64,000 nucleotides of DNA, taken from the NCBI GenBank assembly GCA_937927515.1, contig CALBDO010000003.1, positions 67,274 to 131,273 of the forward strand, in the 5' to 3' direction. How positions within the stretch are numbered: position 1 is the first letter of the stretch; each line of letters opens with the position of its first letter. Positions 5,342 through 58,787 of the stretch are shown here, in pieces. The notes beneath the pieces are model-generated. The model was not told where the DNA came from. It made no database searches and saw only the letters and a program-made list of their open reading frames with translations. The stretch comes from Candidatus Kapaibacterium sp. (GTDB taxonomy: Bacteria; Bacteroidota; Ignavibacteria; Kapaibacteriales; UBA2268). Made by a program: the position numbers and the translations under genes.

Positions 5342-5566
5342 TTAACCACATCCATTAGGACCACAGCTGGGACCACAAACTACAGGTGAAGTAGAGCGCT
5401 TATTAGTCTGGCCACTCAAAATAGCAAAATTCCCTAAAACCTGAATTACCTCTTCAGAGCCACAGTATGGGCAGTCGGGGTTTTTACCCTTTTCCTTTTC
5501 AGATAGTGACATTGTAATTTCAAATTTTTGGACACATTTTTTACAAATATATTCATATGTAGGCAT
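5342..5566 (-). CDS. FmdB-family zinc-ribbon protein (putative regulatory)
   Basis: MPTYEYICKKC...CPYCGS pattern typical of FmdB zinc ribbons; 74 aa. Confidence 0.65.
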   Translation of the reverse strand: MPTYEYICKKCVQKFEITMSLSEKEKGKNPDCPYCGSEEVIQVLGNFAILSGQTNKRSTSPVVCGPSCGPNGCG

Positions 5567-5722
5567 ATAAAACCCTCCTAATTATGACGACCACAATCAA
5601 GTTCTTTCATTTACATCAAATTAAATTACTTTTTGTATCTATAAACAAAAAGATAAAATTAAATTATATTTTAATTCATTTTCATTTTCACTCAAAATTA
5701 AAGAAATTTTCATTTGTATTAC

Positions 5723-6085: not shown

Positions 6086-6099
6086 AACTTCCCTCCTAA

Positions 6100-10299: not shown

Positions 10300-10326
10300 T
10301 AAATTTGTAAATTTATCAAAATAATT

Positions 10327-11559
10327 TTGAATATGAATAGAAACATTGTTATTATTTGGACTTTGTTAAGCCTACAATTTATTAATTGTACCAGACAAGA
10401 GACAGTAATTAAATTTTGGCACTTTTGGAGCGAACCCCAACAGGCCCAGGTAGTAAAGGAAATTGTAGCTAAATTCGAGCGAGAAAATCATTGTAAGGTA
10501 CAAATTTCGGAACTCTCATGGAACGACGGTAAAACAAAACTTATCTTAGCATTCAACTCTCGAACTGCCCCTGACGTACTAGAACTCGGTTCGGATTGGG
10601 TGGCTCAATTTTCCTCGGCCGAAATTTTGGAACCTTTGGACACAAGCGAATTTAAAATAAGTAGATTTCTCGATTACACAACTCATCCAGGTAAATTCAA
10701 CGGTATTCTTTATGCAATTCCCTGGACCATCGGTACAAGAGTTCTCTTTTGTAACTTAGAACTTATGGAAAAATGTGGTATTCTTAATCCCCCAAAGTCC
10801 CTCGATGAACTGCTCGAATATTCCAGAAAAATCAATGACAGTGGAATAGGTTATGGTTTCGGAGCAAATGGAAGCGACCCACATCGGCTATACAAAAAGA
10901 TTCTTCCTTTGATATGGACCTATGGAGGCGAGATAATTGATACAAACGGCAATATTAATATTAATATACCAGCATCAATGAAAGCTTTTCAGACTTACTT
11001 TCAACTTTCACGGGCGGGCATCATTGAAACTCAGAAACAAATCGACTTGTATTTTATTCAGGGAAAGGTTGCCTTTTGCTTCTCGGGAGAATGGTTGCTA
11101 ACAATGATAAACCAATCCAATTCTAATCTTAGATTCGAAACGTGCCTTATGCCTGGAATAAACGGTAAGCCAGGAATTTCATTTGCTGGTGGTGAATATT
11201 TAGCAATTAATGCAGAATCAAAACACAAAGATTTGTCAAAAAAATTAATTAATTTTCTTATTGAGGAGAAAAATTTAATCGACCTTTGCAATAAAATACC
11301 AAGCGCTGGATTCCCTCCGGACACAAATGCCTTAAAGAAACTATACAATATTAACAACCAGCACAAAGCTACATTTCTAGAACAGCTCAAATATTCTAAA
11401 ATGACCCCTGTGCACCCACGTTGGATTGAAATCGAACCAATCATCGAAAAAGCTCTTGTCGAAGTTATTTTTCAGAAGAAAGGAATACCCCAATCAATCC
11501 AGGAAGCGCAACGCCAGATAGAAATATTTAACAAGAACATATTTTTTAACAACATTTAG
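10327..11559 (+). CDS. ABC transporter periplasmic solute-binding protein (family 1, sugar type); orphan with no permease or ATPase genes adjacent
   Basis: Signal peptide, then KFWHFW...AFNSRTAPDVLELGSDWVAQF, typical of family-1 extracellular solute-binding proteins. Confidence 0.75.
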   Translation: MNMNRNIVIIWTLLSLQFINCTRQETVIKFWHFWSEPQQAQVVKEIVAKFERENHCKVQISELSWNDGKTKLILAFNSRTAPDVLELGSDWVAQFSSAEILEPLDTSEFKISRFLDYTTHPGKFNGILYAIPWTIGTRVLFCNLELMEKCGILNPPKSLDELLEYSRKINDSGIGYGFGANGSDPHRLYKKILPLIWTYGGEIIDTNGNININIPASMKAFQTYFQLSRAGIIETQKQIDLYFIQGKVAFCFSGEWLLTMINQSNSNLRFETCLMPGINGKPGISFAGGEYLAINAESKHKDLSKKLINFLIEEKNLIDLCNKIPSAGFPPDTNALKKLYNINNQHKATFLEQLKYSKMTPVHPRWIEIEPIIEKALVEVIFQKKGIPQSIQEAQRQIEIFNKNIFFNNI

Positions 11560-11618
11560 ATAACAATTTCATAAAGTTTTGCTTGCTTTTATGTTAGTTT
11601 TTATTATTTTAGTTTTTA

Positions 11619-11885
11619 GTGTATTCTAAGTTTTTAATTATTATGATAGAAATGTTATTAAGCGAAGCACGAAACGAAAAAATTGTAAAAATCATCTCAA
11701 TAAATGCCTCCAAAGGTGCAAAATACAAGTTGCTCTCACTTGGTTTACATCCAAACGACATCATACAAATTCTTTCAAATCCTTCATTTGGTCCATTATT
11801 AATCAAAAACATATCTAAAGACAATGCAAGAATTGCGATTGGGCGAGTTATCGCTGAAAAAATCCAAGTCGAAAGCATCAATTAA
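11619..11885 (+). CDS. feoA: FeoA ferrous iron transport protein A
   Basis: Small SH3-like protein; LSLGLHPNDIIQILSNPSFGPLLIKNISKDNARIAIGRVIAEKIQVE matches the FeoA pattern. Confidence 0.7.
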   Translation: MYSKFLIIMIEMLLSEARNEKIVKIISINASKGAKYKLLSLGLHPNDIIQILSNPSFGPLLIKNISKDNARIAIGRVIAEKIQVESIN

Positions 11886-13800
11886 AACCATAGTGTTGGT
11901 TGGACAGCCCAACTGTGGCAAGAGCACATTGTTTAACGCTCTTTCGGATATAAAAGTATCTACAGCTAATTTTGCAGGTACAACTGTTGAATATAAAGAC
12001 AGTTTAATTAATATCTATGGGCAAAGTGTTTACATAATTGATTTGCCAGGTATTTATTCATTGACACCATCTGAACCAGCTGAATACGCAACATTCAATT
12101 ACCTCCTGAATAATAATATCGACCTAATAATCAACGTGATTGACTCTACTCTCATAACAAAAAGCTTAGAATTAACAATTGAACTTAGCCAACTCGGGAT
12201 TCCAATTGTTATCGCTCTCAACATGAACGACGAAGCACAAAATAAAGGTATAGAGATTGATAATGAACTTTTATCTCGTTTCTTTGGGGGCATACCGGTT
12301 GTAAAAATATCGGCTCTATTTAGAAAAGGAATGACTGAATTGCTAAATTCAATTTACACTCAGCTTTTTACAGAACCGACTAAACCCGTTCAAATTTTAT
12401 TTTCAAAACCAATAGAGGATGCTTTAGCTAAATTTTCTGGTATTGTAGAAATATCTTTCTCTAAATCCATTCATAATAGATTTTTTTTAATCAAAGCACT
12501 GGAAAATGAAGATATTATAAAAAACTTTGTTAGAACTAATAACCAAGACTTATATTTAGAAATCAAAAGAAACTTGTCTAAACAATTTGGATTGTCTGTT
12601 TTCGAGATTTTTACAAACGAGCGAAATATATTGAGCACTAAAATTTCTCAACAAGTAACCAAACACAATCCCCAGCCTTTGGTGCCATTTATTGAAAAGA
12701 TTGATTTGCTTTTCCTAAGACCTTCGACTGGTTACTTTTTTGCGATTATATTTTTTGTGCTATACTTCACACTCATTTTTATTTTCGGTGGTTTGTTGAG
12801 CGAAATTCTCGAAAAGCCACTGGGAAACCTTTCTATACTTATCGAACCTTTGAAAACAACCACACAGCTCGGGTGGTTTGTTGCCGATGGGTTAATCCAA
12901 GGACTTTTGGGAGCAATTGGTATTGTTTTACCATACTTTTTGCCGCTGTTGTTTTTAACCGCTATACTCGAGGAAAGTGGTTACATGGCGAGAATAGCTT
13001 ATCTTATGGATGTTGTCTTCCATCAGATTGGGCTTCACGGAAAGTCTGTTGCTTCGTTCATAATGGGATTTGGGTGCACAGTTCCAGCTGTATTTGCTAC
13101 AAGGATTATAGAAAATCGAAGAGATAGACTCTTAGCATCCATTCTTATAAATTTCATACCTTGTTCGGCAAGATTGACAGTCATCTTTGCTCTCACAACT
13201 GCGCTAACTGGACCAATTTGGACAATTGTAATTTTTTTCTTTATTCTTCTTGCAATTGCATCTACAGCAAAAATTCTTTCTTGGTTTTTACCAAAACCAA
13301 CTGGTTTAATTATGGAAATTCCTCCACTTCGAATTCCTTCAATTCAAATAGTTTTTAAAAAAACTTATTTCAAACTTTTGGAATTCTTCAAAATCGCTTT
13401 TCCATTTCTTCTGCTTGGAAGTGTCATTTTAGCAATCCTTGAATATTTAAACTTTCATTATTTTGTAAATTCTTTACTATCCCCTTTAATACAAAATATT
13501 TTAGGATTGCCAAAGGAATTGGGTACAGCATTGGTCTTTGGTTTTCTTCGTAAAGAACTCGCTGTATTTATGATTGCCCGCTCATTTGGAACTACTGATT
13601 TACATTTATTACCAATGACGATTACACAAGTTCTAACTTTTATAGTTTTTGTAGTATTCTATCTACCTTGTATTTCCACAACAGCAGTATTTTGGAAGGA
13701 ATTTGGATGGAAACATCTTCTCCTGACAATTACGATTGGGTTGACTATGTCGATAATTTCTGCTTTGTTTTTTAGGTTTGCATTAACAACTTTTTTATGA
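11824..13800 (+). CDS. feoB: FeoB ferrous iron transporter (the true start is probably a non-ATG codon downstream of 11824; the annotated frame overlaps feoA)
   Basis: G-protein domain IVLVGQPNCGKSTLFNALS and a polytopic C-terminal membrane domain. Confidence 0.9.
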   Translation: MQELRLGELSLKKSKSKASIKTIVLVGQPNCGKSTLFNALSDIKVSTANFAGTTVEYKDSLINIYGQSVYIIDLPGIYSLTPSEPAEYATFNYLLNNNIDLIINVIDSTLITKSLELTIELSQLGIPIVIALNMNDEAQNKGIEIDNELLSRFFGGIPVVKISALFRKGMTELLNSIYTQLFTEPTKPVQILFSKPIEDALAKFSGIVEISFSKSIHNRFFLIKALENEDIIKNFVRTNNQDLYLEIKRNLSKQFGLSVFEIFTNERNILSTKISQQVTKHNPQPLVPFIEKIDLLFLRPSTGYFFAIIFFVLYFTLIFIFGGLLSEILEKPLGNLSILIEPLKTTTQLGWFVADGLIQGLLGAIGIVLPYFLPLLFLTAILEESGYMARIAYLMDVVFHQIGLHGKSVASFIMGFGCTVPAVFATRIIENRRDRLLASILINFIPCSARLTVIFALTTALTGPIWTIVIFFFILLAIASTAKILSWFLPKPTGLIMEIPPLRIPSIQIVFKKTYFKLLEFFKIAFPFLLLGSVILAILEYLNFHYFVNSLLSPLIQNILGLPKELGTALVFGFLRKELAVFMIARSFGTTDLHLLPMTITQVLTFIVFVVFYLPCISTTAVFWKEFGWKHLLLTITIGLTMSIISALFFRFALTTFL

Positions 13801-13876
13801 TTTCAAATTTTTATGTTATAATTTTTTTTATATTATTTTTGTTATTTTAAATATTTGAAAATTAATAGGTTTTGCA

Positions 13877-14530
13877 ATGGTTAGTCAAGCTGTTCAAGAT
13901 TACTTAAAAGCAATTTTCAAACTTCAGAAGGACAGTCCAGTTTCGACAACTGAGTTAGCAAAAGAATTAAACGTGTCTGGCGCCTCTGTTACGGGAATGT
14001 TAAAACGTCTTGCAAGTATGGGACTTGTTGAGTATAACTCATATCATGGAGCAAAACTAACTCCCTCTGGCGAAAAGGTCGCTTTGGAAACTATACGCTT
14101 CCATCGTTTGCTGGAGCTTTATTTAAAAGAGCAGTTACATTATCCTTTGGACAAAGTCCACGAGGAAGCTTGCAAACTCGAACACTTCATTTCGGAGGAA
14201 TTCATTGAAAGAATTAATGAAATATTAGGCGACCCAAAGTTCGACCCCCACGGACATCCAATCCCTACAAAAGAGGGATTTCTCTTGAATCAAGATGAAA
14301 TTCCTTTGACCGATGCAGAAATAGGTGTATCCTATACAATTGGTCACCTGGAAGATGATAATCCAGAACTTCTTGCATATTTAGAAAGCCTTGGACTTTT
14401 ACCAGGAACTGTTATCAAAATTATTGAAAAACTTCCATTCTATGGACCAATCTCACTGAAAATAAAAAACTCACCCAAAACACATACTATTGGATTCGAG
14501 GTTGCCAAAAGAATATTCGTTCAAAAATAA
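13877..14530 (+). CDS. DtxR/IdeR-family metal-dependent transcriptional repressor with a C-terminal FeoA/SH3-like domain
   Basis: N-terminal wHTH (SVTGMLKRLASMGLV) and a metal-binding/dimerisation region (HEEACKLEHF..HGHPIP). Confidence 0.85.
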   Translation: MVSQAVQDYLKAIFKLQKDSPVSTTELAKELNVSGASVTGMLKRLASMGLVEYNSYHGAKLTPSGEKVALETIRFHRLLELYLKEQLHYPLDKVHEEACKLEHFISEEFIERINEILGDPKFDPHGHPIPTKEGFLLNQDEIPLTDAEIGVSYTIGHLEDDNPELLAYLESLGLLPGTVIKIIEKLPFYGPISLKIKNSPKTHTIGFEVAKRIFVQK

Positions 14531-32746: not shown

Positions 32747-34657
32747 TTAAACAATAAATTTACCCCGTTTAACGTAATGGGTGTGTAAAAGTTTGTGCGA
32801 AATATGCCCACAAGGACCATCGACTAAGAACTTCTCGTAAATGTATTTGATATGTGGATTTTCGTGAGATTTTCTAATAGGTAATTCTTTGTCTTCATTG
32901 TAAATGGCTTCGGCACGTTTTCTTCTAATTTCTGGACTTGTTGGGATGGGTTGTCCACCTCCACCAATACAACCACCTGGACAAGCCATAATTTCTACAA
33001 AATGGTAATCATCCAACTCTCCATGAATTAATGCTTCCATTACTTTTCTTGCATTCGAGGTTCCGTGGGCAATCATGAACTTAACTTCGAAGCCCTCGAG
33101 AAATCTCCATTCATCTTTAACATCTGTCAAAATAACCGAACCTTGCCTTACCCCATCCATACCACGGCAGGGAGTAATGTCAAGATTCTCAAAAGGTACT
33201 TCCCGCCCAGTAACAATCTCGTAAACTGTTCTTAATGCTGCTTCCATCACGCCTCCGGTAGCACCAAAAATTAAACCAGCACCAGAGGCATTACCAAATG
33301 GCTCATCAAAATAGCTTTTTGGTAGTTCTGGTAAATAAATCCCAGCTTCTTTTATCATTTGAGCAAGTTCTCTTGTTGTTAATCCATAATCGATATCTTT
33401 GTATCCAGAAGCATTCATTTCTGGACGATTGCATTCAAATTTTTTGGCTGTACAAGGCATTACTGCTACAGTTACAATATTTGCTGGGTCGATTTGCATT
33501 TCCTGAGCATAGAATGTCTTAATTATTGCACCAAACATTTGTTGGGGGGATTTGCAAGTGGATAAATAATCTAAGTGTTCTGGATAATAGTGTTCAATGA
33601 ACTTAATCCATCCGGGTGAACAAGAAGTAAATTGTGGCAATTTTACTTCGGGGTCACCAAAAAGGTATTTTCTTTTCAATCTAAGTAAAAGCTCCGTACC
33701 CTCTTCCATTATGGTTAAATCTGCTGCAAAATTAGTGTCGAAAACACGGTCGAAACCAATCATTCTTAGGGCAGTAACCATTTGTCCAGTCATTGAATGC
33801 CCGGGAGGCAATCCAAATTCCTCCCCTATAGCAGCTCGAATTGAGGGTGCAGTTTGAATTACAACATGCTTAGTTGGGTCGTCGATAGCTTTCCATATTT
33901 CATCTGATGGGTCCTTTGCCCTAAGAGCTCCAGTTGGGCAACGATTAATACATTGACCGCAATTAATACAGATGACATCTAATATTGGCTTGTCCATAAA
34001 AGTAGATATTAGTGTAGAATAGCCTCGCCTTGTTGCCTCCAATACCCCAACTTCTTGGAGGTCGATACAAGTACGAACACATCTTTTACAGAGAACGCAT
34101 TTATCCATATCCCGAACTATGGCATAACTTGAGCGGTCTACTTCATAACGTGGTTCTTTTATGTGACCAAATCTGTAGAAATCAACACCATATTCTTTTG
34201 CAAGTCTTTGCAATTCACAATTGTTATTTCTCACGCAAGAATAACATTCACCATAATGTTCGCTTAGCAGCAAGTCTAAGATGTGGCGTCGTGCCTTGCG
34301 AACACGCTCGGATGTTGTCCAGATTTTAATTTTGTTTGTTATAGGATATGCACAGGAGGCCTGCAATGTTCGCATGCCTTCAACTTCAACAACACATACA
34401 CGACATGCACCAGCAAGGCACAAATCCTCGTGATAACATAGCGATGGAATGTGAATATTGTTATTACGACAAGCCTCCAAAATAGTCATTCCAAATGGCA
34501 CCGTATAACCTTTACCATTGATTTCAACATCGATATAAGCTCCGACATCAGCATCTGCTTTGATTTCAACTTTGTGAGGCTTCTGTGCAACTGGTGCCCT
34601 ATTTTGCATTGCATTAATAGCCATTTTTGCCTCGAATTGAGTTCGACATGATTTCAT
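32747..34657 (-). CDS. hydA: [FeFe] hydrogenase catalytic subunit HydA (M3-type: 2Fe-2S, His-ligated 4Fe-4S, two ferredoxin-like 4Fe-4S, H-domain). The start is probably an internal Met (34624 or 34609), which removes the overlap with hydB.
   Basis: L2 MPCTAKKFE and L3 EIMACPGGCIGGGGQP are canonical. L1 reads TSCSPGW (33614-33628) rather than TSCCPxW. N-terminal ferredoxin-like Cys patterns. Confidence 0.9.
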   Translation of the reverse strand: MKSCRTQFEAKMAINAMQNRAPVAQKPHKVEIKADADVGAYIDVEINGKGYTVPFGMTILEACRNNNIHIPSLCYHEDLCLAGACRVCVVEVEGMRTLQASCAYPITNKIKIWTTSERVRKARRHILDLLLSEHYGECYSCVRNNNCELQRLAKEYGVDFYRFGHIKEPRYEVDRSSYAIVRDMDKCVLCKRCVRTCIDLQEVGVLEATRRGYSTLISTFMDKPILDVICINCGQCINRCPTGALRAKDPSDEIWKAIDDPTKHVVIQTAPSIRAAIGEEFGLPPGHSMTGQMVTALRMIGFDRVFDTNFAADLTIMEEGTELLLRLKRKYLFGDPEVKLPQFTSCSPGWIKFIEHYYPEHLDYLSTCKSPQQMFGAIIKTFYAQEMQIDPANIVTVAVMPCTAKKFECNRPEMNASGYKDIDYGLTTRELAQMIKEAGIYLPELPKSYFDEPFGNASGAGLIFGATGGVMEAALRTVYEIVTGREVPFENLDITPCRGMDGVRQGSVILTDVKDEWRFLEGFEVKFMIAHGTSNARKVMEALIHGELDDYHFVEIMACPGGCIGGGGQPIPTSPEIRRKRAEAIYNEDKELPIRKSHENPHIKYIYEKFLVDGPCGHISHKLLHTHYVKRGKFIV

Positions 34658-35807
34658 CTTTGAAATTAGTAACTATTGAAATGAATGGATTTGGAGAGGA
34701 CTGCCCAAGGCCACATTTAGAAGCTATTTGCATAGTCTTTCCCAGTTCTATCAATTCATTTAAATATTTGTGAGAGCATTTACCCTCTTCGAGAAGTTCT
34801 ACTCCTTCGAGAAGTTTTTTGTTTCCAATTCGGCAAGGAGTACATTGTCCACAACTTTCTTCTACAAAAAATTCCATAAAGTTTTTCAATACTTCTAGCA
34901 TATTACGATTTTGGTTGAAGATAATCACAGAACCGCCTGTTGGAATATCTTCGAAAGAAATATTTCTGTCTATTTCGCTCATTGGAACACAAATACCAGA
35001 AGCGCCGCCAATTTGAACAGCCTTTGTATCTTCGGCTCCGACAAGTTCCAAAAGCTCTTTAACTTTTATTCCAAAGGGAACCTCGTATACACCTGGTTTC
35101 TTACAATCCCCAGAAACAGAAATCAATTTCATACCTTTTGATTTCTCGGTACCATACTTTGAAAACCATTGAGCGCCTTTTGAAATAACTATGTATGCAC
35201 AAGCAAATGTCTCTACATTATTTACTATCGTTGGATAGCCAAGATATCCAGTATTAACAGGAAATGGTGGCCGATTTCGTGCTTCCCCTCGGTGACCCTC
35301 CAAAGATTCAATTAGTGCGGTTTCCTCACCACAAACATAAGCCCCAGAACCAAGGCGAATTTCAATGTCGAAGTCAAAATTTGTACCAAGAATGTTTTTA
35401 CCTAAACGCTTTTCTTTTCTCATTCTCTCAAGGTAATCGTTTAAATATTCATAAAGATAAGCATATTCGCCCCGTAGGTAAATAAAACCTTTCTGTGCTT
35501 GAATTGCATATCCACCAATAACAATCCCTTCGAGAACCAATTTAGTATATTCAGAAAGTAGCACACGGTCCTTAAATGTCCCTGGTTCACCTTCGTCAGC
35601 ATTGCAAACAACAAACTTCTTATCGGATTTTGCTGTAAGAGCCAGCATCCATTTAGTCCCAGTAGGAAAACCAGCACCTCCACGACCACGCAATCCAGAC
35701 TCTCTTACTTCCAATACAACTTCTTGCGGGGTCATTTTCAAAGCTTTTTCCAAAGCTTCTCCATGAGCTCTTTCATCAAAAAACACTGTATCATTTATAA
35801 TTGGCAT
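34614..35807 (-). CDS. hydB: NuoF-like NAD(P)H-binding flavoprotein subunit of the hydrogenase (HydB; core-only, no extra ferredoxin domains)
   Basis: GRGGAGFPTGTKW (FMN/NADH site) and the NuoF [4Fe-4S] motif CGQCTPCRIG...C; 397 aa. Confidence 0.85.
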   Translation of the reverse strand: MPIINDTVFFDERAHGEALEKALKMTPQEVVLEVRESGLRGRGGAGFPTGTKWMLALTAKSDKKFVVCNADEGEPGTFKDRVLLSEYTKLVLEGIVIGGYAIQAQKGFIYLRGEYAYLYEYLNDYLERMRKEKRLGKNILGTNFDFDIEIRLGSGAYVCGEETALIESLEGHRGEARNRPPFPVNTGYLGYPTIVNNVETFACAYIVISKGAQWFSKYGTEKSKGMKLISVSGDCKKPGVYEVPFGIKVKELLELVGAEDTKAVQIGGASGICVPMSEIDRNISFEDIPTGGSVIIFNQNRNMLEVLKNFMEFFVEESCGQCTPCRIGNKKLLEGVELLEEGKCSHKYLNELIELGKTMQIASKCGLGQSSPNPFISIVTNFKDEIMSNSIRGKNGY

Positions 35808-35815
35808 AGCTCCTC

Positions 35816-36310
35816 CTACTTCAAATTTTCAATGATTTCAATAACTTTCGATGGCGTAAGTTTTGTGTACACTTGTTCGTTTATTAACATTGCTGGTCCT
35901 TGGTCGCACATACCTATGCAGTGACAATATTCCAAAGTAAATTTCCTATCCGAAGAGGTTTCTCCAAATTTTAAACCCAACTCCCTTTGCAATGTATTTG
36001 CAACAGCATCTTTCCCAGCAAGGTCGCATGATATAGTTTTGCATAATCGAATAATGTACTTTCCCTTCGGTTCAGTACTTAAAAAGCTATAAAATGTTAC
36101 TACTCCATAAACCTCGACAGGATGGATATTCATTTTGTGCGCAATTTCCTGCATGGCAAAGTCGGAAATAAAACCAAACTTTCTTTGAATGTCTTGTAGT
36201 ACTGGTAGTAAGTTCTCTCGACCACTACCATATTTTTCGATTAATTTCTCAACTTCATTGACTATTACGTTATTATCTGGAACAATCATACTTCCCTCAT
36301 TTTTTTCCAA
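35816..36310 (-). CDS. hydC: NuoE-like thioredoxin-fold [2Fe-2S] subunit (HydC)
   Basis: CHCIGMCDQGPAMLIN Cys pattern of NuoE/HoxE; 164 aa. Confidence 0.8.
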   Translation of the reverse strand: MEKNEGSMIVPDNNVIVNEVEKLIEKYGSGRENLLPVLQDIQRKFGFISDFAMQEIAHKMNIHPVEVYGVVTFYSFLSTEPKGKYIIRLCKTISCDLAGKDAVANTLQRELGLKFGETSSDRKFTLEYCHCIGMCDQGPAMLINEQVYTKLTPSKVIEIIENLK

Positions 36311-36698
36311 GGTATTTATTAATTATATCCAGAAGTACATCGGATTTAATGGGTTTTTCAAGAAATTCATCTACAGGAAGGTACTCGCTTACTCCAAAAT
36401 CATAGCCGGAAACTTTTGCAATAGATGTAAGAAGTAATATAGGTTTTTCAAAACCCATATTTCTTAACTTCATTGCCAAAAAGAAACCATCATCTGGCTC
36501 CTCCATCATAACATCGAGCAAAACCAAGTCTGGTCTTTCCCTTTCAATAAGTTCAAAACCATCTTTTGTATTCGTTGCAGAGACAACTTCAATACCTTTG
36601 TTCTTAAGAATTAAACTAACTGCATCGATGATGTCTATGTCATCATCAACGATAGCAATTTTGACCATAAAATCACCTTTATTTTCATAAAAACACAA
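36297..36698 (-). CDS. Single-domain response regulator (CheY-like receiver only)
   Basis: IAIVDDD...DLVLLDVMM...K receiver pattern; 133 aa; no output domain; overlaps hydC by 14 nt. Confidence 0.8.
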   Translation of the reverse strand: MCFYENKGDFMVKIAIVDDDIDIIDAVSLILKNKGIEVVSATNTKDGFELIERERPDLVLLDVMMEEPDDGFFLAMKLRNMGFEKPILLLTSIAKVSGYDFGVSEYLPVDEFLEKPIKSDVLLDIINKYLGKK

Positions 36699-36798: not shown

Positions 36799-38346
36799 CT
36801 ATTCGTTTTCCTGTTGATATTCTTCTACTTTTTCCAATTTTGTGCTCTCATCTTGGATAAAAGGTAATGAAAATGCAAATGTTGAGCCCTTTCCTAAGAC
36901 ACTTTTGACCCAAACTTTTCCTCTCATAGCTTGGACTAATCGCTTCACAATCCACAGACCCAGACCAGAGGATGGTTCATCCCCGGTTGGTTTGGCGCTC
37001 AAGCGAGCACCTCTTTGAAATGCTCGATTTATGTCTTCATCAGACAATCCCAGTCCATTATCTATGACTTGAATTACTACTTTGTCGTCTTTTCTTTCGG
37101 AAGTAACCCGAACTTCTCCACCTTTTTGGGTAAACTTTATAGCATTCGAGACAAGATTGTCTAGGACTTCATAAACTTTATATTTATCAAACAAAAATTC
37201 TTCCAATTTGCTATCAATATCAACATATATGTTTATGTTTTTGAGTTGAGCATTTCGTGTATTAGCTTTGACGACTTCATTAATAACCTCATTCACGTTA
37301 CCTAATTCGAGATTTAAACTTACAAGAGATGATTCAAGAGCAAGAATACGTGAAACCTCCTGAGAAAGGGCAACTATCCTGTTTGAGGTTTGAAGTATAT
37401 CGTCGATAATTTCTTGCTGTTCAGTTGCAGTTAAGTCGTAAGAACGAAGAAGTTCTACGAGATTTTTAATTAAAGCAGCTGGATTTTTGATATCGTGGAT
37501 AATCACTGCGAACAATTCATCTTTCTGTCTTTGGAGCTCCTCCAATTCTTCCTTGCTATTGGATAATTTTTCTACTTTTTCTTTGAGTTCAATATTTTGT
37601 CGTCGCAGCTCTTCTGCGCGCGAGTTTAATGCATCTATCTGGCCACGGAGCGCAGCAATCTCCGCTCGTAAATTGCTATTTTCCAATACAATTTGCTCGT
37701 ACTTTTGCTTATCAATTGTCATCTTGCTTGGTGATTCAGCAAAAGTCCTTTTAGCTTTGGATTTAGACTTATTGATTATGATTAATATTATAATGAAAAC
37801 CAAAAAGGCTGCACCAAAACCAAATAAAAGTGATTTGAGCTCGAAACCATAAAAAACCCTTCTCTCAATATTTTCGGAATTCAAATGTGTAGGAATCTTT
37901 GGAGTTGTCTGTGTTAACTTTTTAATCTCCTTTATTTTTGAGCTTAATTTATTGTTTACAATAAATTCGATATCCAAAGGCTTTGCCACCCATTTATTCC
38001 TTGGATCGAAAGCCTGTATAGTTAATTTATAGAAATCCTCTGGAAGATTTTTGTAATTAATGTTCTTCAAGTTTACTGTATAAGCAGAAGAATCTTTGCT
38101 ATTTTTAATAACAACACGAAAAATAAAAGGAGTTCGCAAAGAAGTATCTTTTGTTTCAAGATGGAAGAAAAAGGAAATGGAATCATTTCTCGAAAAGACA
38201 AGGAAATCGAGTTCCTCTGATGTGAGTTCTCTCCCATTTACTTTAATGAAATCAAGCTTAACTTCTCTATCCTCTGAATGTAAAAACTTGGTATTGAAAA
38301 CAAGAGATAACAAAAGGAACGTTATAAAAAGCTTTTTCATTTTCAA
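36799..38346 (-). CDS. Membrane histidine kinase with a periplasmic Y_Y_Y-like domain, coiled coil, HisKA and HATPase_c
   Basis: Signal peptide or TM, YKLTIQAFDPRNKWVAKPLDIEFIV (Y_Y_Y-like), TM helix, heptad region, H-box IIHDIKNPAA, DNGLGL and GLGLWIV. Confidence 0.8.
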   Translation of the reverse strand: MKMKKLFITFLLLSLVFNTKFLHSEDREVKLDFIKVNGRELTSEELDFLVFSRNDSISFFFHLETKDTSLRTPFIFRVVIKNSKDSSAYTVNLKNINYKNLPEDFYKLTIQAFDPRNKWVAKPLDIEFIVNNKLSSKIKEIKKLTQTTPKIPTHLNSENIERRVFYGFELKSLLFGFGAAFLVFIIILIIINKSKSKAKRTFAESPSKMTIDKQKYEQIVLENSNLRAEIAALRGQIDALNSRAEELRRQNIELKEKVEKLSNSKEELEELQRQKDELFAVIIHDIKNPAALIKNLVELLRSYDLTATEQQEIIDDILQTSNRIVALSQEVSRILALESSLVSLNLELGNVNEVINEVVKANTRNAQLKNINIYVDIDSKLEEFLFDKYKVYEVLDNLVSNAIKFTQKGGEVRVTSERKDDKVVIQVIDNGLGLSDEDINRAFQRGARLSAKPTGDEPSSGLGLWIVKRLVQAMRGKVWVKSVLGKGSTFAFSLPFIQDESTKLEKVEEYQQENE

Positions 38347-50593: not shown

Positions 50594-53500
50594 CTATTTA
50601 TTAATTATCATCTGTCTTGTAAGTCTCTTTCCGCAAAACTCAAGAGTGTAGGCATACACACCACTCGCCAAATTCAACTTTTCGACGTCCACGAGCACAG
50701 AGTGATAGCCAGCAACGACATCTGCGTTTAGTAACTCAATGCTTATATCACCAAGCAAATTGCTAATTGTGACTCGCACTCTCCCATTATTGGGGATGAA
50801 GAAATCAACTTTAGAAATACCGCTAAATGGATTTGGCTTGTTCTGATATAATTCTAAGGAACCCATTTCCCCAGGAACTTCGAGTATAGTTTTGAATGTG
50901 ACTGTAACAACACATTCTTTACTCCAAACCTCACCACACTGGTTGTAAACTTTAACTTTATAGGTTCCAGCATCTTCAGACTTGGCAGAGGTTATTTCAA
51001 ATGTAGGTTCGGTTACATTTAACTCCTGGTCATCTTTGTACCACTGATAATTCAAGTTGTCGCCAGTGGCACCGATTGCGAGGACAATGGGTTGTCCAGT
51101 ATTCACCTGATAAGTTGCTGGCAAATCGTTCACAATTAATGGCTTAGAGAATACTGCAAGAGTTGCTGGTCCAACAGTTTGCTCGTCGAAGCCTTCGATA
51201 GTAATCGTCACTGAGTACAAACCTGCATCCGTCGCATCAATGTTTGATATAGTTAGACTTGAAGTGTTAACGCCTGAATATTTGCCACCTTCTTGCAGAG
51301 CTACACCATTGAACTTCCACTGGTACTTAAGGTCGAAGCCAGGGACTGTCGACGAGGCATTTACAGTAAAGGTAACGTCTTCACCTTCGCAAGCTTGCTG
51401 GTCGGCTAATTGCTGAGCAATTATTCTTGGCTTTTCAACTAATGAGATTGGTTCGGAGGTATCGGCACCACACAACCCCTCGACGATTACATAATAATTC
51501 GAACCAAAATCGGCTGGTCGAATATCTCGTATGGTCATAATTGATGACTTAGTACCTGCTATTCTATCATTATCAACCAATGGTGTAGTTCCACGATACC
51601 ACCTAATCTTTGGCTGCAATAATGGATTATCTTGAGCAGTGAAATGCACATCAATTTCAAAGGTTGCAACCGAGCCAGTTGTTGTGTAAATAACCTTTGG
51701 CTGACGTGTAATTTTTGTTGGTTCGACAGCATACAACAATGTTGGTTGAGTCCAAACTGGTTCGGCTTCGCCGTTTCCAGAAATCTTGCAAGTGTAGACA
51801 CCTCCCATATTGAATGTTAAAGGTGGAAGTGGATAAATTGCCTCGGTTGCTCCGGGTATTTCAACATTATTGAAGTACCATTGATAAGACAATGTACCAC
51901 CAAAATCAATTTCTGCAACAACAGAGAAATAATTATCGGTCGAGCCAACGCAATTGATTACCTCTTTCGGCTGACTTAAAATTCGAATAGAAGGATTCAA
52001 GGTATTGACACCAATGTAATAAGCCTTGTTTCTTTGATTTCCATCAATGTCAAATTTTTCAATTTCGTCCGAAAGCGGACCTAACTCAACTAATGGATAA
52101 GTGTAATATAGTTCTCTTTTAATTTTAGCAATTCTCGGATTGTCATCCGAAAGGAATTCAGCACTCACGGAAACAGAGTTGAAATCTAAGTTAGTAATGG
52201 CTTTCCAGGTCGCTAAGTTTGGTATATTACCAAATATACCAGATACTAATACAGACCCTGCGGTATAGATATTGTTTTCATCACTGATTAGACCAACCGG
52301 AGGCGTACCCCAAACTTGAATAGCATTGCCTGTACCCTTGTTGTAAATCATGTTTCTCTTGAAGTAGTTTCCATTTCCGAGGCTATTCAAATAGATAATT
52401 GGACCGCTAGTATTGCCAACAAAGGAATTGTACACAAACTTGGACATTGTTATTCTATCCAAATAAGAAGCACCAGAGTTCAAGGTTGTTACTATGTTGT
52501 TAGCAACGATTGCCGAGGTGGAAGCCAAACGCATTCCGTAATTGCCACCACTCAATTTAATGTAATTTTTATAAATCTTAGCGTTTTGTGAGTTTTCGGA
52601 GTAAATACCTATAGTGTTCGAATTTGTAATATAGTTCTTATCTATCATTAGATTTTGGGAACCAGAGTTCAATATTACGATTGCACCCTTTTGATAAGAA
52701 CCAGTAGAACTCAATGTAAACTGATTTTCGCTAATGTTTGCAGATGCGAAGTTGTTCACAAATATTCCATTGGTGTTAGTTCCCATTAGGGTATTACCAG
52801 TGATAGTCACAGCATTAATACCATTTGAAACTGAAATTCCAGCCTGGGGATTGTTTATAGCAGTGGTGCTTGCTGGACCAATTCCGCTAATTCTATTCCC
52901 AGAAATTGAATTTCCGCTTACCAGCGGTGATGGAAGATTCTCTTCTTTATCTAAGCCTAGAATTACAAAGTTTCCCGAATTGATATAAATACCGTAGACC
53001 AAATTTAAGCCAGAGATTGTATTGTTATCAATAGTATAATTGGAAACTCCTTCGAGAAATGCTCCATACAAATTTTGTCCAACGAAGATGTTGTTTGTAA
53101 TGTTCAAATTTACAGAGTTAACACCAGTTGGAGTTAATAAGTATATGCCTGTAGAGCCATACCTTAAAGTTGTATTATTAATTTTTAGGTTGTCTAACCT
53201 ACTATTGTCAGAAAGAATTAGGGCAAAATTTAGATTCTTTAGTGGATTTTGGCAACCAATAATGGTACAATTTTCTATCGTCAAGCCATTAATATTACCA
53301 GATAGTTTAATCACATTGCCCCACGTGCAACTATTGTTTCTAATGATTAAATTTCTAAATACGACTCCACCCAAACGGTCGATTCTAAACACATAATTAT
53401 CATTTGGTCCAGAGGGGGTATATTCGATAATTACATCATCGTTTCTTCCGGTGAAAGACTCGAATGTAATTGGAAACTGCCGATAACCAACTGGCTGCAA

Positions 53501-56500
53501 CAAAACACCACCCTGGTAAGTCCCTGGTCTAAGTTTTATTGTAACTGGACCAGCAATACCCCAATAAGCTATATAATTGGTAAACTCGTCAAGTGAATTG
53601 AAATCTGGATTACGACCACCAATTGTGTACGTACCTCCAGCAAGTGCTTTGTAAACAACAACTGTCCTTTCATCATTATCAGGGTTATCGTCTGGATATC
53701 CATTGGGATATTGTGTTGCTGCTTTTATATAGAATGGTAAATTGGCGGTGCCAAAATCATAAGTACCAACGGCTACATCAATTGAGTCCTGAGCAGCAAG
53801 GTATCCATTCCAGTCGTACGAAGTTTGCTGAACACCATTTACCCACCAATTAATTCTAACGTAAGTCAAAGGTTTTGGAGCGTAATTCTTAATTCTCAAC
53901 TTAACTACATTAACACCGGGTTCAATTGGCAGCATTCCATCAGCATTTAAAAATCCAGCATCGTTAAGAATTGGTGCAACTTGTTTTGTAAATGCGTCGT
54001 TGGTTGGGTCTTTATCGGGCAGAGTATTGGCAATTGGGTCAGGTCCTTTGGGGTCGGTCGTCCAAACTTTAATTGTGAAGGGATTCCAAGGTGCTCGTGG
54101 AACAAATAGGAAGTTTGGATGAATGACAACCTCCTCGGTAGCACTAGTATCAAGGTTACCAGTCCAATAGTATGGTGTTTGTTCCACTCCATCAATGGAC
54201 CAACGAATCGTCACACTTGTAAGTCTAAAGAATTTACCAAAGTTCTTCAATACAGCCTTTACTTGTTGCGGTTCATATGAATTGAATTTATCTACTGGAC
54301 TTGTAATATTTACAATTCCAGCATCATTTTGCTTAATATCGCCCTGGAATTTGACCAAAAAAGCTTCTGGCGTACCACTATATGAATACTGATGACCATT
54401 TGTGGTTGCTATTTGGTCAATATCGGTTGAATATGTATAACCACCGATAAATGGATTTCCCTGGCCATCAACTTTTACACAATTATAATAAACATAGTCG
54501 GAGTTGTTACCACCATAATATGTCCCCCATTTTCTTGTTCTTCCATCAGGGGATAACATTGCGAGCCAACCGTCGGGGGTTGTACTTAAGTAAGTTTTAA
54601 ATCCATCTGGAGAGGCTATACCACTTGAGGAATAAGTAATCCCCCCAACATAAACGTTGCCGCTTCCGTCTGCAGCAATTCCATAACCATAATCTGTACT
54701 TGGACCACCATAGTAAGTACCCCACTGGCGGACGCCACTGGTATTAAACTTAACCACATAGGCATCTGGTGTGGTGCTTAAAACTGTTTGGTACGTTCCA
54801 GAGGTAACAATGTAATCAGAAGAATAAGTCATTCCGGTAAAATAAACATTGCCGTTTTGGTCGGCATACAAACTGTAAAGATAATCTGTGCTCGAACCAC
54901 CATAATAAGTGCCCCATTGGCGGACTCCATTAGTATTAAACTTGACAAGAAATGCATCAGGAGTAACCACATACATTGTTTGATGAGCACCAGATGTAGC
55001 TATATTTGTTGAAGAATAAGTAAAACCTCCGATGTATACATTCCCACTACCATCGCAAGCCACAGAAAAACAATAATCGGAACTATTCCCTCCATAATAT
55101 GTACCCCATTGGCGTACGCCATTCGTGTTGAACTTGACTAAGAAAGCATCTGGTGTAGTACTTATAGTTGTTTGGTGTCCATTGGAAGTTGCAATATTAT
55201 CGGTCGAATATGTATAATATCCAGCGAGATAGGAATTACCATTAGCATCAGCAGCACAGGAATAACATATGTCAGTATTGTTCCCACCATAGTAAGTACC
55301 CCACTGGCGAACTCCATATGCATCAAACTTCACAAGGAAGCAATCTGGAGTGGTACTTATGATAGTTTGATGTCCATTACTCGATGCTATCACGTTTGAG
55401 GAATATGTGTAACCACCGAAATAAACATTTCCGTAACTATCTGCTCCAATACCATAACCATAGTCTGAACTACTTCCACCATAATATGTTCCCCACTGGC
55501 GAACCCCATTAGCATTAAATTTAACCAAAAAAGCATCTGGCGTTGTATTCAAAGTGGTTTGGAATGCGCCCGAGGTTGCAATATTATTTGTAGAGTAGGT
55601 ATAACCAGTTATGTACGAGTTACCATTAGCATCGGCGTGAATACCGTAGCCAATTTCAGTGCTACTACCACCATAATAAGTACCCCACAATCTTGTTGGT
55701 GGGTCGATAATCAAGGGTTTAGAAGCATCATAATTTTCTACATAAAATGTTATAACATCATTGGAATTTTTAACGAACTTGCTTGTAACATAATTTGCTG
55801 CAGTTGGTTGTTCACGGGAATTGATGTAAGAGTCAAGATTTGGGATTTGGTAAGCAATAGGAGGTGCTTGCTCGATGGTTCCTAAGGGTGTGGAGACGCG
55901 CAGGGTACCATTATCAGTTATTTCGATAGCAGAAGCACCAGCAAATTTAAAAGCAATTTTACTTGGGTCTGCACCAGGCTTCAAGACAAAATCGTATTGA
56001 AACTTATTTTCCCTATTTCCATAAAGAACGAAATCTATACCGGGATAGACATCCTCCATAAGTATTGTCGCATATCTGCGGACAAAAGTTATACCATCGG
56101 GACAATGTGGAAGATAATAATTATCGTAGTCTGGTTGAATTTCCTTTGGAATAAACACTGGATTTAAATTCGCTCCGAGTAATTGCATATCTACACGATA
56201 TATATCGAAAGTAGCAGAGATATCGCCGAGTGGTTCAGTTCCCTTGTCGATGCCAAAAGGCTTGTCCAATTTCTCGTTCCGGGCATCAATGGATTCGGGT
56301 CTTTGTTTGATAAAGGTAAAGCTAATAGTATTGTTTTTGACGACGATGGTACCAAAATCAACTTGTGCGACGAACTGAACATCTTTATTCACATTTCCGA
56401 ACTGGTCGACAATTTGACCTTTGTTCTCGATAAAGATAATGCTTTTGCGAGCAAGAAATTCACTTGGAGTTGGCGTCGAAAATACTGTTGAGGAAAGAAA

Positions 56501-56554
56501 AGAAATTAAGAAAGCAAACAAAAATAATTTTTTCATAGTGCAACCCCTATACAA
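50594..56554 (-). CDS. Giant secreted surface protein (1986 aa): eight SBBP beta-propeller repeats, parallel beta-helix repeats, Ig-like domains and a T9SS C-terminal sorting domain
   Basis: Signal peptide (start probably MKKLFLF). Eight ~63-aa repeats WGTYYGG..DYGY....GNVY..G.TYS. NNTISG/NNIFVG right-handed beta-helix-like repeats. YQWYKDDQEL Ig-like modules. C-terminal ...LNLASGVYAYTLEF.GKRLTRQMIINK. Confidence 0.75.
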   Translation of the reverse strand: MYRGCTMKKLFLFAFLISFLSSTVFSTPTPSEFLARKSIIFIENKGQIVDQFGNVNKDVQFVAQVDFGTIVVKNNTISFTFIKQRPESIDARNEKLDKPFGIDKGTEPLGDISATFDIYRVDMQLLGANLNPVFIPKEIQPDYDNYYLPHCPDGITFVRRYATILMEDVYPGIDFVLYGNRENKFQYDFVLKPGADPSKIAFKFAGASAIEITDNGTLRVSTPLGTIEQAPPIAYQIPNLDSYINSREQPTAANYVTSKFVKNSNDVITFYVENYDASKPLIIDPPTRLWGTYYGGSSTEIGYGIHADANGNSYITGYTYSTNNIATSGAFQTTLNTTPDAFLVKFNANGVRQWGTYYGGSSSDYGYGIGADSYGNVYFGGYTYSSNVIASSNGHQTIISTTPDCFLVKFDAYGVRQWGTYYGGNNTDICYSCAADANGNSYLAGYYTYSTDNIATSNGHQTTISTTPDAFLVKFNTNGVRQWGTYYGGNSSDYCFSVACDGSGNVYIGGFTYSSTNIATSGAHQTMYVVTPDAFLVKFNTNGVRQWGTYYGGSSTDYLYSLYADQNGNVYFTGMTYSSDYIVTSGTYQTVLSTTPDAYVVKFNTSGVRQWGTYYGGPSTDYGYGIAADGSGNVYVGGITYSSSGIASPDGFKTYLSTTPDGWLAMLSPDGRTRKWGTYYGGNNSDYVYYNCVKVDGQGNPFIGGYTYSTDIDQIATTNGHQYSYSGTPEAFLVKFQGDIKQNDAGIVNITSPVDKFNSYEPQQVKAVLKNFGKFFRLTSVTIRWSIDGVEQTPYYWTGNLDTSATEEVVIHPNFLFVPRAPWNPFTIKVWTTDPKGPDPIANTLPDKDPTNDAFTKQVAPILNDAGFLNADGMLPIEPGVNVVKLRIKNYAPKPLTYVRINWWVNGVQQTSYDWNGYLAAQDSIDVAVGTYDFGTANLPFYIKAATQYPNGYPDDNPDNDERTVVVYKALAGGTYTIGGRNPDFNSLDEFTNYIAYWGIAGPVTIKLRPGTYQGGVLLQPVGYRQFPITFESFTGRNDDVIIEYTPSGPNDNYVFRIDRLGGVVFRNLIIRNNSCTWGNVIKLSGNINGLTIENCTIIGCQNPLKNLNFALILSDNSRLDNLKINNTTLRYGSTGIYLLTPTGVNSVNLNITNNIFVGQNLYGAFLEGVSNYTIDNNTISGLNLVYGIYINSGNFVILGLDKEENLPSPLVSGNSISGNRISGIGPASTTAINNPQAGISVSNGINAVTITGNTLMGTNTNGIFVNNFASANISENQFTLSSTGSYQKGAIVILNSGSQNLMIDKNYITNSNTIGIYSENSQNAKIYKNYIKLSGGNYGMRLASTSAIVANNIVTTLNSGASYLDRITMSKFVYNSFVGNTSGPIIYLNSLGNGNYFKRNMIYNKGTGNAIQVWGTPPVGLISDENNIYTAGSVLVSGIFGNIPNLATWKAITNLDFNSVSVSAEFLSDDNPRIAKIKRELYYTYPLVELGPLSDEIEKFDIDGNQRNKAYYIGVNTLNPSIRILSQPKEVINCVGSTDNYFSVVAEIDFGGTLSYQWYFNNVEIPGATEAIYPLPPLTFNMGGVYTCKISGNGEAEPVWTQPTLLYAVEPTKITRQPKVIYTTTGSVATFEIDVHFTAQDNPLLQPKIRWYRGTTPLVDNDRIAGTKSSIMTIRDIRPADFGSNYYVIVEGLCGADTSEPISLVEKPRIIAQQLADQQACEGEDVTFTVNASSTVPGFDLKYQWKFNGVALQEGGKYSGVNTSSLTISNIDATDAGLYSVTITIEGFDEQTVGPATLAVFSKPLIVNDLPATYQVNTGQPIVLAIGATGDNLNYQWYKDDQELNVTEPTFEITSAKSEDAGTYKVKVYNQCGEVWSKECVVTVTFKTILEVPGEMGSLELYQNKPNPFSGISKVDFFIPNNGRVRVTISNLLGDISIELLNADVVAGYHSVLVDVEKLNLASGVYAYTLEFCGKRLTRQMIINK
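54170..55690 (-). repeat. Intragenic tandem DNA repeats (period ~190 nt, about 8 copies) encoding the SBBP propeller blades
   Basis: Recurring ccaccata(a/g)ta(a/t)gtaccccactggcg(g/a)ac...aaacttaac units seen near 54706, 54897, 55094, 55284 and 55474. Boundaries are approximate and derived from the protein repeat span. Confidence 0.5.
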
Positions 56555-56645
56555 TTATAAAACATACAACTTTTTTTCATTAAATATAAAAAAGCAAGTA
56601 GTAAATTAATAAAAATTTTTTAAAAAATCAAATATAAATTTTTTT

Positions 56646-58787
56646 TCATTTGACTGGCGTTTCTATAATAATATGCACAGTTCGGCAATAACTCCTCCCT
56701 TGCGGCAGCGAGTTGTCATATAGCAAAATTTCATTCCCAACTGGATTTAGTACAACTTGTGAGTCGGGCAGTTGTAGGAAATTTTTCACTGCAAGACACC
56801 TTCGTAAAGCTAAATCTTTGTTGTACGATACTTCTCCAATTTTATCGGTAAAACCAGAAATGGTAACTTTCGAATTTGGTGCTATTTTGCTTTTTATCTG
56901 GTTTAGAATTGGGATGTGTTGTGGCAGTAAATCTGCTTTGTCGAAGTCAAATACAATCAGAGAAAAGCGTTCGATTTTTTTATCGCCAAGCAATTCCTCT
57001 CTTTTTCTCTTTATTGTCCTTTGTTCGATTTTTACACTAACCTTTGATATACTTCGCTGGTCTAAAATATCCTCGGCGATAAAATTTATCAAGATTGGCT
57101 CTTCTAACTTTGGAATAGGTTCCTCTTCAACGCTCCAAAGTATTTTCTCAGGTAAATCGATTCCAGAGTAAGTCCGCAAATTTGTCCCGCTCTGTTCGAT
57201 TGTCAAGTTCCATCCTTTTAAACTTGCATCAGAATGAATTTCTGGTAAAATCTCGACGAAGGGTGGATTGGCGACTTTCTCAATCTTTGAAAGTCTTACA
57301 GGACCAGTAATTTTGCCACTCTTTGAAAAAATCTCTACTCTTTGATTTTCTTCAATACCTTCTGGAATAGATGGATTTGTCATTTTTTCCGGAAGATTTC
57401 TAAACTTAACATCAATTCGTTCGGGCTCTATACCCCAGGTCTCAACAAGATATTCCTTCACAGCTAAGGCACGTTTTTGAGACAATTCAAGATTATTCAA
57501 TTCAACGCCAATGTTGCTATTGCAACCAGTAAGGACAATCGATTCTTTGGGATTTTGCTTAAGCCTCTTAGCAATAATATTAAGCAGGTTCTCATATATT
57601 TTCAATGTATTCCACGGAAGGAAGCTTTCGTCGAATCCATCTGTTGTAGACTTATCAATTAAATTGACCGATGAGCTTTCCAAGCTCCATTCTCCAGTTG
57701 GAAAATAAATGTATGGTAAAAGAGGGAACATCTCTTCAGTTTCAAACTCTTCGATTACCAATACTGGATTATTTTGAACTTCTCCTTGTTTTGACTTTCC
57801 AACGACCTTGAGTTTGGTCTCCAATTGTGAAATCTTTGGGACCTCTGTTCGATATTTTTCACGTACGAAAGTTTTGTATATATACCCGTCAGATACTTTT
57901 TCTTTAATCGTTTTTTCGAGAACAGTTTCCTCAAGATAAGTTCGTTCGGATTTTAACCCAAAAACGGCTATTCGTAATGTATCACGAACGAGCATCGTAT
58001 CATAATAATAATGAACTTCGGGGGGGGAATATATTGGAAATCTAGCAGAAATTCCAATATCTAAATGCGATATTTTCCAATTTTCATTAGTAAGATTTTG
58101 AAATGGAATGAGGAAGCGTAATTGTGGTGAAATCCAAGCAGCATCGAAAAGTTGTATATCATAAGACAAACCCAAACTTGGGCGGACTAAAAATTTTTTA
58201 ACATTAGGTATTTCCAAGTTCAGATTAACGTTTCGTTCTTTCTCCCCATTAACAAATACAACACTATTCGGTGAAATTATAACTTCCTTTTGGTCTACCT
58301 TGGTCAAAAATAAATTTGAAAAATTTAGTCCGAAAGTCAGCCACAATCTACCAAAGATTTTATACATTAAAACAGGTTCAACGTATAAACCAATTAACTT
58401 GGGAGCTAAAAAATGCTGGACAGTAACCGGTAAAAGCACTATTTGGCTAACATCTTCCTCATATTTTACTGGTGTATTGCCGATAAACTCATTTTCTTTA
58501 AAAGTTACCCCCTCAGAGTTTAATCCACCAATTAATCGCAAAGCAAACTTCTCGGAAAGTTCCTTTTGAGCTAACAAAGAAATGTTCCAACCCAAGCCAA
58601 GAGTATTAGTATAGCGGGGACAACAGTTTGGTATATTTTGCAACTTGTTAAAATCCGCAAAGTGAATATTAAACCCTAAATCAACTTCACCACCGATATA
58701 AAATATAGGCTTTTTGATTTCATTAGAATAAATGGCAACTTCTGGTAAAAACATTAACAACAATAAAAAACAAATATTTCTCATCAT
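56646..58787 (-). CDS. Outer-membrane protein with an N-terminal beta-barrel-like region and two OmpA-like peptidoglycan-binding domains
   Basis: Signal peptide and beta-rich N-terminal half. Two OmpA_C-like segments (LSQKRALAVKEYLVE...NQRVEI and NKDLALRRCLAVKNFL). Overlaps the upstream giant gene by 4 nt (ATGA). Confidence 0.6.
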   Translation of the reverse strand: MMRNICFLLLLMFLPEVAIYSNEIKKPIFYIGGEVDLGFNIHFADFNKLQNIPNCCPRYTNTLGLGWNISLLAQKELSEKFALRLIGGLNSEGVTFKENEFIGNTPVKYEEDVSQIVLLPVTVQHFLAPKLIGLYVEPVLMYKIFGRLWLTFGLNFSNLFLTKVDQKEVIISPNSVVFVNGEKERNVNLNLEIPNVKKFLVRPSLGLSYDIQLFDAAWISPQLRFLIPFQNLTNENWKISHLDIGISARFPIYSPPEVHYYYDTMLVRDTLRIAVFGLKSERTYLEETVLEKTIKEKVSDGYIYKTFVREKYRTEVPKISQLETKLKVVGKSKQGEVQNNPVLVIEEFETEEMFPLLPYIYFPTGEWSLESSSVNLIDKSTTDGFDESFLPWNTLKIYENLLNIIAKRLKQNPKESIVLTGCNSNIGVELNNLELSQKRALAVKEYLVETWGIEPERIDVKFRNLPEKMTNPSIPEGIEENQRVEIFSKSGKITGPVRLSKIEKVANPPFVEILPEIHSDASLKGWNLTIEQSGTNLRTYSGIDLPEKILWSVEEEPIPKLEEPILINFIAEDILDQRSISKVSVKIEQRTIKRKREELLGDKKIERFSLIVFDFDKADLLPQHIPILNQIKSKIAPNSKVTISGFTDKIGEVSYNKDLALRRCLAVKNFLQLPDSQVVLNPVGNEILLYDNSLPQGRSYCRTVHIIIETPVK

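Follow-up and report, generated by a model that had tools for sequence, protein, structure and literature searches.

Does an [FeFe] hydrogenase that carries a serine in place of one cysteine ligand in its catalytic cluster still work as a hydrogenase, or has it become something else? The locus that raises this question lies in a 64,000-nucleotide stretch of Candidatus Kapaibacterium sp. (assembly GCA_937927515.1, contig CALBDO010000003.1, positions 67,274 to 131,273), all of which is referred to here as the window. Its minus strand encodes an [FeFe] hydrogenase catalytic subunit, HydA, in which the L1 motif of the H-cluster reads TSCSP where the textbook motif is TSCCP. The original prediction, made from the letters of the window, regarded this variant as unusual and as a possible mark of sensory or low-activity group C/D enzymes. 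We find that locus 32747..36310 (−) is a heterotrimeric, NuoE/NuoF-linked [FeFe] hydrogenase with the gene order hydC–hydB–hydA. The TSCSP form is already known: multimeric group A enzymes include a large Ser-type subset that has been described before, and HydA is an unexceptional example of it. Very probably, the complex is a non-bifurcating hydrogenase with a natural TSCSP L1, a serine-ligated cubane and fully competent catalysis.

The reverse complement of 33614..33628 is ACT TCT TGT TCA CCC, which confirms the reading of the L1 (or P1) motif as T-S-C-S-P on the minus strand, within the product context ...KLPQFTSCSPGWIKF... The cysteine codon TGT (33622..33620, −) corresponds to C299 of CpI, the proton relay, and the serine codon TCA (33619..33617, −) corresponds to C300, a ligand of the [4Fe-4S]H subcluster. 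These roles, as originally predicted, agree with the literature: C299 is the start of the proton pathway (Land et al. 2020), and the second cysteine of TSCCP is a ligand of the cubane (C115 in the numbering of mature CrHydA1, with C114 as its neighbour; Kertess et al.). HMMER alignments with CpI, Thermoanaerobacter kivui HydA1 and Acetobacterium woodii HydA1 run ungapped through L1 and place the cysteine on C299 and the serine on C300, and the same placement recurs in a MAFFT alignment of 220 sequences; the serine is at the ligand position, as had been proposed. Directly before L1, HydA carries a seven-residue insertion relative to these three enzymes (YLFGDPE; 33647..33667, −), the length of which is kept in 116 of 120 close homologues.

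Elsewhere in the H-domain the picture is conventional. L2 (MPCTAKKFE; 33434..33460, −) supplies the equivalents of M353, the ligand C355, K358 and E361, and L3 (EIMACPGGCIGGGGQP; 32948..32995, −) those of M497, C499 and C503; both were correctly described as canonical and can be read in the product of the open reading frame (ORF). E279, E282, R286, C299, S319 and F417 also have their equivalents in HydA, and the proton-pathway, ligand and second-shell positions are 95–100% conserved in 135 Ser-type sequences. The product therefore has an H-domain with L1, L2 and L3 in which L1 gives a natural-variant ligand set of three cysteines and one serine. CpI and T. kivui HydA1, which are group A enzymes with canonical TSCCP, belong to the same H-domain fold family and match HydA in their catalytic, proton-pathway and second-shell residues, but have cysteine at position 300 where HydA has serine; CpI, in addition, is monomeric and ferredoxin-dependent. 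In the mechanism that we propose, the serine would take the place of the Cys300-equivalent ligand, while the relay cysteine, the remaining proton pathway and three of the four cysteine ligands stay in place.

This serine is a fixed feature of the family. A protein identical to HydA occurs on three contigs, from NCBI, ENA and Logan; TSCSPGW is present in all 120 of the closest database proteins (75–100% identity), and TSCSP(G/A)W in 80 out of 80 species-representative genome loci from Kapaibacteria, Ignavibacteria, Melioribacteraceae, Omnitrophota, Latescibacterota, Elusimicrobiota and others. The codon, by contrast with the residue, varies across these 80 loci (TCA in 33, TCT in 25, TCG in 17, TCC in 4 and AGC in 1). 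An invariant serine with synonymous codon turnover indicates purifying selection, and on these comparisons we regard the residue as selected and not as an error, in line with the original view that it was no trivial sequencing mistake. Among the best 150 representatives of 50%-identity clusters, [T/S]SCSP occurs in 22 and CCP-type motifs in about 104, which gives a Ser-type share of about 17% of the representatives with a recognizable L1, in agreement with a published figure of about 20% of putative [FeFe] hydrogenases with serine at the ligand position (Kertess et al.). A rough neighbour-joining tree of H-domains, with long branches and poor resolution, scatters Ser-type enzymes among Cys-type ones; it suggests repeated interchange of cysteine and serine and does not bear out monophyly of the Ser type.

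The most instructive precedent is A. woodii HydA1 (PDB codes: 7Q4V, 7Q4W and 8A5E), which shows ITSCSPGWIKFIE at the aligned position, with the L1 core ITSCSPGW, and shares with HydA the M3-type domain order, TSCSPGW, L2, L3 and the proton pathway. In its structure, solved by cryogenic electron microscopy (cryo-EM), Ser301 replaces the cysteine ligand (Katsyv et al.), so that the Ser-O ligation raised in the original prediction as a possibility has been reported in that enzyme. In the infrared signatures of its H-cluster and in its catalytic activities, the A. woodii HydABC complex resembles the T. kivui enzyme; with its TSCSP motif, it is a fast bidirectional hydrogenase (Katsyv et al.). The two systems also differ: the A. 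woodii complex is bifurcating and has a 599-amino-acid HydB with extra Fe-S domains, and its HydA1 is without the pre-L1 insertion and without the clade-specific Cys409 and Cys497 of HydA. Further precedents are TSCSPGW in Melainabacteria (Di Rienzi et al. 2013) and a 2024 survey that gives the motif as xTSCxPxWx and finds serine to be common in four of the five group A3 subtypes of Hydrogenedentota. With serine at the C300 equivalent known from surveys, Melainabacteria, Hydrogenedentota and the A. woodii structure, the variant is not the rarity that it was taken for, and its value as a discovery is small. By analogy with A. woodii HydA1, the cubane would be coordinated through the serine oxygen (Cys3Ser coordination), and the Fourier-transform infrared spectra and activity of that enzyme lead us to expect that HydA would be a fully competent H2 catalyst.

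The family assignment is firm, and the identification of the gene as hydA holds in Pfam, NCBIfam and PDB matches. The catalytic subunit (32747..34624, −; 625 amino acids from ATG 34624) has the Pfam domain order [2Fe-2S], NuoG-type [4Fe-4S], 2×[4Fe-4S] ferredoxin, H-domain (PF02906, iron-hydrogenase large subunit, E = 5.9e-92) and small-subunit-like C terminus. It matches NCBIfam model NF040763 (‘NADH-dependent [FeFe] hydrogenase, group A6’) over profile positions 1–571 of 571 with a score of 835.6 bits, above the curated cut-off of 765 bits. Its best match among solved structures is A. woodii HydA1 (7q4v_A, E = 1.9e-189, residues 43–634), followed by T. kivui HydA (8a6t_A) and then CpI; the A. 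woodii and T. kivui matches are HydA subunits of electron-bifurcating HydABC complexes. The named homologues and cluster members point to Candidatus Kapaibacteriota. HydA belongs to HydDB-type group A3, a placement made by subunit architecture, and to the NCBIfam class ‘group A6, NADH-dependent’. The mechanically called ORF (32747..34657, −; 636 amino acids) begins at ATG 34657 and is probably too long: the true start is most likely to be ATG 34624, because homologues are 624–625 amino acids in length and a GAGG precedes this codon, and the gene would then overlap the stop of hydB by 11 nucleotides.

Upstream of hydA lie hydB (34614..35807, −; 397 amino acids), which encodes a short flavoprotein subunit of NuoF-like type that has one [4Fe-4S] cluster and an FMN/NADH site, and hydC (35816..36310, −; 164 amino acids from TTG), a NuoE-like, thioredoxin-like [2Fe-2S] subunit. 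The start of hydC may be the internal ATG 36289 (157 amino acids), because most homologues have that length, and the mechanical ORF start is probably too long here as well. The three genes are contiguous or overlapping in one operon, with the adjacent NuoF-like and NuoE-like genes that define the HydABC architecture, and the order hydC–hydB–hydA recurs in ~70 related loci.

For the physiology of the complex, the short complex-I-type HydB is more informative than the serine. Its alignment with bifurcating HydB proteins is confined to their core (residues 167–554 of 626 in Thermotoga maritima and 142–526 of 599 in A. woodii); it is without their [2Fe-2S] domain at the N terminus and their ferredoxin-type domain at the C terminus, and contains only one four-cysteine cluster motif; the extra clusters B2–B5 of bifurcating HydB are absent. 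Signature residues point the same way. The hallmarks of bifurcating HydB proteins are the A and M of PG-A-F-M, the F of GAGA-F, and GGPSG, whereas non-bifurcating ones have T/S and K/S/A (T. maritima positions 232/234), Y, and no GGPSG (Losey et al. 2020; Schut et al. 2022). HydB reads EPG-T-F-K-DR, GSGA-Y-VCGEE and GGASG, which is the non-bifurcating set throughout (the F/Y position, 367 in the text of Losey et al. and 312 in PDB chain numbering, was assigned by motif). Related HydB proteins agree (TFK in 67/75, Y in 66/75 and GGASG in 72/75), and locus L072 provides an internal control in which a second operon has a 622-amino-acid HydB (AYM, F, GGPSG) beside a TTCCP-type HydA. On this Omnitrophota contig the short-HydB/TSCSP and long-HydB/TTCCP operons stand side by side (4270–7872 and 10110–13852). 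Two other loci, L053 and L060, have a 571-amino-acid HydB and no separate hydC, and probably encode a HydC–HydB fusion.

A close parallel, by its published description, is Hyd1ABC of Syntrophomonas wolfei, a trimer with subunits of 63, 44 and 17.5 kDa and a HydB of 407 amino acids that has neither the [2Fe-2S] cluster at the N terminus nor a [4Fe-4S] cluster at the C terminus. The two share trimeric composition, a short HydB and the non-bifurcating residue signature. S. wolfei belongs to a different phylum, and its complex has been demonstrated to form H2 from NADH without ferredoxin, reaching about 17–40 Pa H2. Because HydB is short and has neither the extra Fe-S domains nor the bifurcating signature residues, we predict direct NADH-to-H2 coupling over bifurcation: by analogy with S. 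wolfei Hyd1ABC, the complex would be a ferredoxin-independent, NADH-dependent hydrogenase. With its minimal HydB, the complex would couple NADH/NAD+ directly to H+/H2, either releasing the electrons of NADH in the form of H2 when the partial pressure of H2 is low, or consuming H2.

Several points weigh against this combined reading. The engineered C115S variant of Chlamydomonas CrHydA1 shows poor cluster occupancy and no activity (Kertess et al.); because the same exchange kills that enzyme, tolerance of the serine depends on the protein background. The Ser–Fe ligation in A. woodii comes from a cryo-EM model and is the subject of one brief remark in the paper. Counts of Fe-S domains are, on their own, an unreliable guide to bifurcating versus non-bifurcating enzymes (Losey et al. 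2020), and because A. woodii has the serine motif and yet bifurcates, the motif is uninformative on coupling. Among the scanned ORFs of at least 150 amino acids in the 64-kb window, there are no HydE, HydF or HydG maturases; the sole radical-SAM ORF among them is MiaB-like.

How well do other explanations fare? A sequencing or assembly error at the serine codon, or a recent inactivating mutation, has nothing in its favour beyond the departure from textbook TSCCP, and is effectively refuted by the identical protein in three independent sources and by the invariance of the serine, with turnover of its codon, in 120 homologues and 80 species-level loci. It is also extremely unlikely that the altered L1 is the mark of a slow enzyme or of an H2 sensor like those of groups C and D. 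In favour of this reading, genes for a histidine kinase and a response regulator stand directly upstream of the operon, and C115S in CrHydA1 is inactive. An H-domain with non-canonical L1 is common to HydA and to group C/D enzymes (TmHydS, TamHydS and kinase-linked C1 fusions), which are often encoded beside group A3 operons. But in groups C and D, C299 is lost together with the entire proton pathway, M353 and M497 vary, and a C-terminal four-cysteine domain is a further mark (Land et al. 2020); these enzymes keep the ligand cysteine and carry sensor or kinase domains. HydA has the opposite pattern at L1 and ends in a small-subunit-like domain, with no C-terminal Cys-rich, PAS or kinase domain. 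Because its relay cysteine, proton pathway, M353 and M497 are intact, the sensory reading is not supported, and the nearest relative of known structure that shares the motif is fast and bidirectional. In relatives, moreover, the true sensor fusions are separate genes. About ten Ignavibacteria/Melioribacteraceae loci (L007, L010, L017, L018, L040, L045, L054, L061 and L067) have a separate fusion of H-domain, PF04060, HisKA and HATPase_c upstream of the same operon, with SS[P/S]CPA as L1 (relay cysteine lost, ligand cysteine kept) and GPCxAKK as L2. These fusions are group C1-like, histidine-kinase-linked putative H2 sensors; a tblastn search of the window with such a C1-like fusion matched only hydA and an unrelated kinase domain. 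For annotation, a TSCSP motif should not be taken as grounds for describing an [FeFe] hydrogenase as a sensor, as inactive or as an error.

Another alternative is a ligand swap, in which either the fourth cubane ligand is a cysteine from elsewhere, or the relay cysteine (C346 in 636-amino-acid numbering) binds the cluster and the serine is a bystander. We consider this very unlikely, although it has candidates: a cysteine at the position of CpI A321 (S-T-C-K-SPQQ) in both HydA and A. woodii HydA1, the extra C409 and C497, and the suggestion of Kertess et al. that the neighbouring cysteine could substitute in C115A. The A321-position cysteine is about as frequent in Cys-type as in Ser-type enzymes (0.61 and 0.67) and is replaced by alanine in 42 of 120 close TSCSP homologues. 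C409 and C497 (also in 636-amino-acid numbering; 33431–33433 and 33167–33169, −) align with A362 and V448 of CpI. Their conservation is about 90% in the FCB-group clade of HydA, against 13% and 4% in Cys-type enzymes, but neither A. woodii nor any of the 12 other diverse Ser-type representatives has them. Across 14 diverse Ser-type sequences, only the C299, C355, C499 and C503 columns are invariant cysteine; the alignment contains no other invariant extra cysteine in Ser-type enzymes, no compensating cysteine supplied from a shifted position, as the original prediction had allowed for, and no second-shell column that separates Ser-type from Cys-type. There is a weak trend towards glycine after the L1 proline (13/14 Ser-type and 35/85 Cys-type), which may be phylogenetic. 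Use of C299 as a ligand would cost the proton relay, a misfit with the high activity of A. woodii, and a serine that is never alanine or glycine argues for a role of its own. Electron bifurcation after all (NADH and reduced ferredoxin to H2, the usual reading of HydDB group A3) is somewhat less remote than these alternatives but still quite unlikely. It draws on the PDB, where each of the three subunits has its best relatives in bifurcating HydABC complexes, and on the trimeric gene order. However, HydB is without the domains for clusters B2–B5 and without the F/A/M residues and GGPSG, deletion of the HydB C terminus lowers bifurcation in T. kivui (Katsyv et al.), and the architecture fits S. 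wolfei Hyd1ABC.

A non-bifurcating hydrogenase with a serine-ligated cubane thus remains our preferred reading, and it raises a modest question: natural Ser-type enzymes work, whereas the algal enzyme fails once its cysteine has been engineered to serine. One tentative answer, which we think improbable on balance, is that Cys3Ser ligation is adaptive and serves, in NAD(H)-linked hydrogenases, to tune stability, catalytic bias or the potential of the [4Fe-4S]H subcluster, perhaps dependent on background. A background-limited tolerance is conceivable because the same change abolishes the activity of the Chlamydomonas enzyme. In the FCB-group clade, the serine is accompanied by the seven-residue pre-L1 insertion and the clade-specific cysteine pair. 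If tuning were true, short-HydB enzymes would offer a natural system in which to study the effects of first-shell oxygen ligation on H-cluster chemistry.

The regulatory genes next to the operon form a recurring arrangement. In the window, a single-domain, receiver-only response regulator (36297..36698, −) lies directly upstream of hydC, and a histidine kinase with HisKA and HATPase_c domains (36799..38346, −) lies upstream of the regulator. Most related loci have the receiver-only regulator directly upstream of hydC; the Kapaibacterium-type loci L001–L004 and L024 share with the window the histidine kinase before it as well (~70% identity). The fusion-bearing Ignavibacteria/Melioribacteraceae loci hold a second regulator/kinase pair in addition. 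These arrangements suggest an H2-responsive phosphorelay that controls the hydrogenase, the window itself being without the sensor fusion.

Some relatives carry unexpected names. Loci L003, L009, L010, L011, L013 and L073 are labelled as Hyphomicrobiales, Chromatiales or Methanosarcinales archaeon, and encode HydA proteins that are 67–87% identical to that of the window. The first five show response regulator–hydC–hydB–hydA synteny of the Kapaibacteria/Ignavibacteria type, and L073 shows hydC–hydB–hydA only. The taxonomic labels of these six metagenome-assembled genomes look unreliable.

Elsewhere in the window, a second histidine kinase (513 amino acids) is paired with a sigma-54-dependent response regulator (449 amino acids) at 1805–4682 (−), with no evident link to the hydrogenase. 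At 11824–14530 (+) there is a FeoB ferrous-iron transporter and, after it, an iron-dependent repressor of the DtxR type that is fused to a FeoA domain. At 50594–63817 (−), two very large predicted surface proteins flank a 713-amino-acid OmpA-family protein: one, of 1986 amino acids, has DUF7948, SBBP beta-propeller, beta-helix and Ig domains, and the other, of 1677 amino acids, has HYDIN/ASH-type Ig-like domains.

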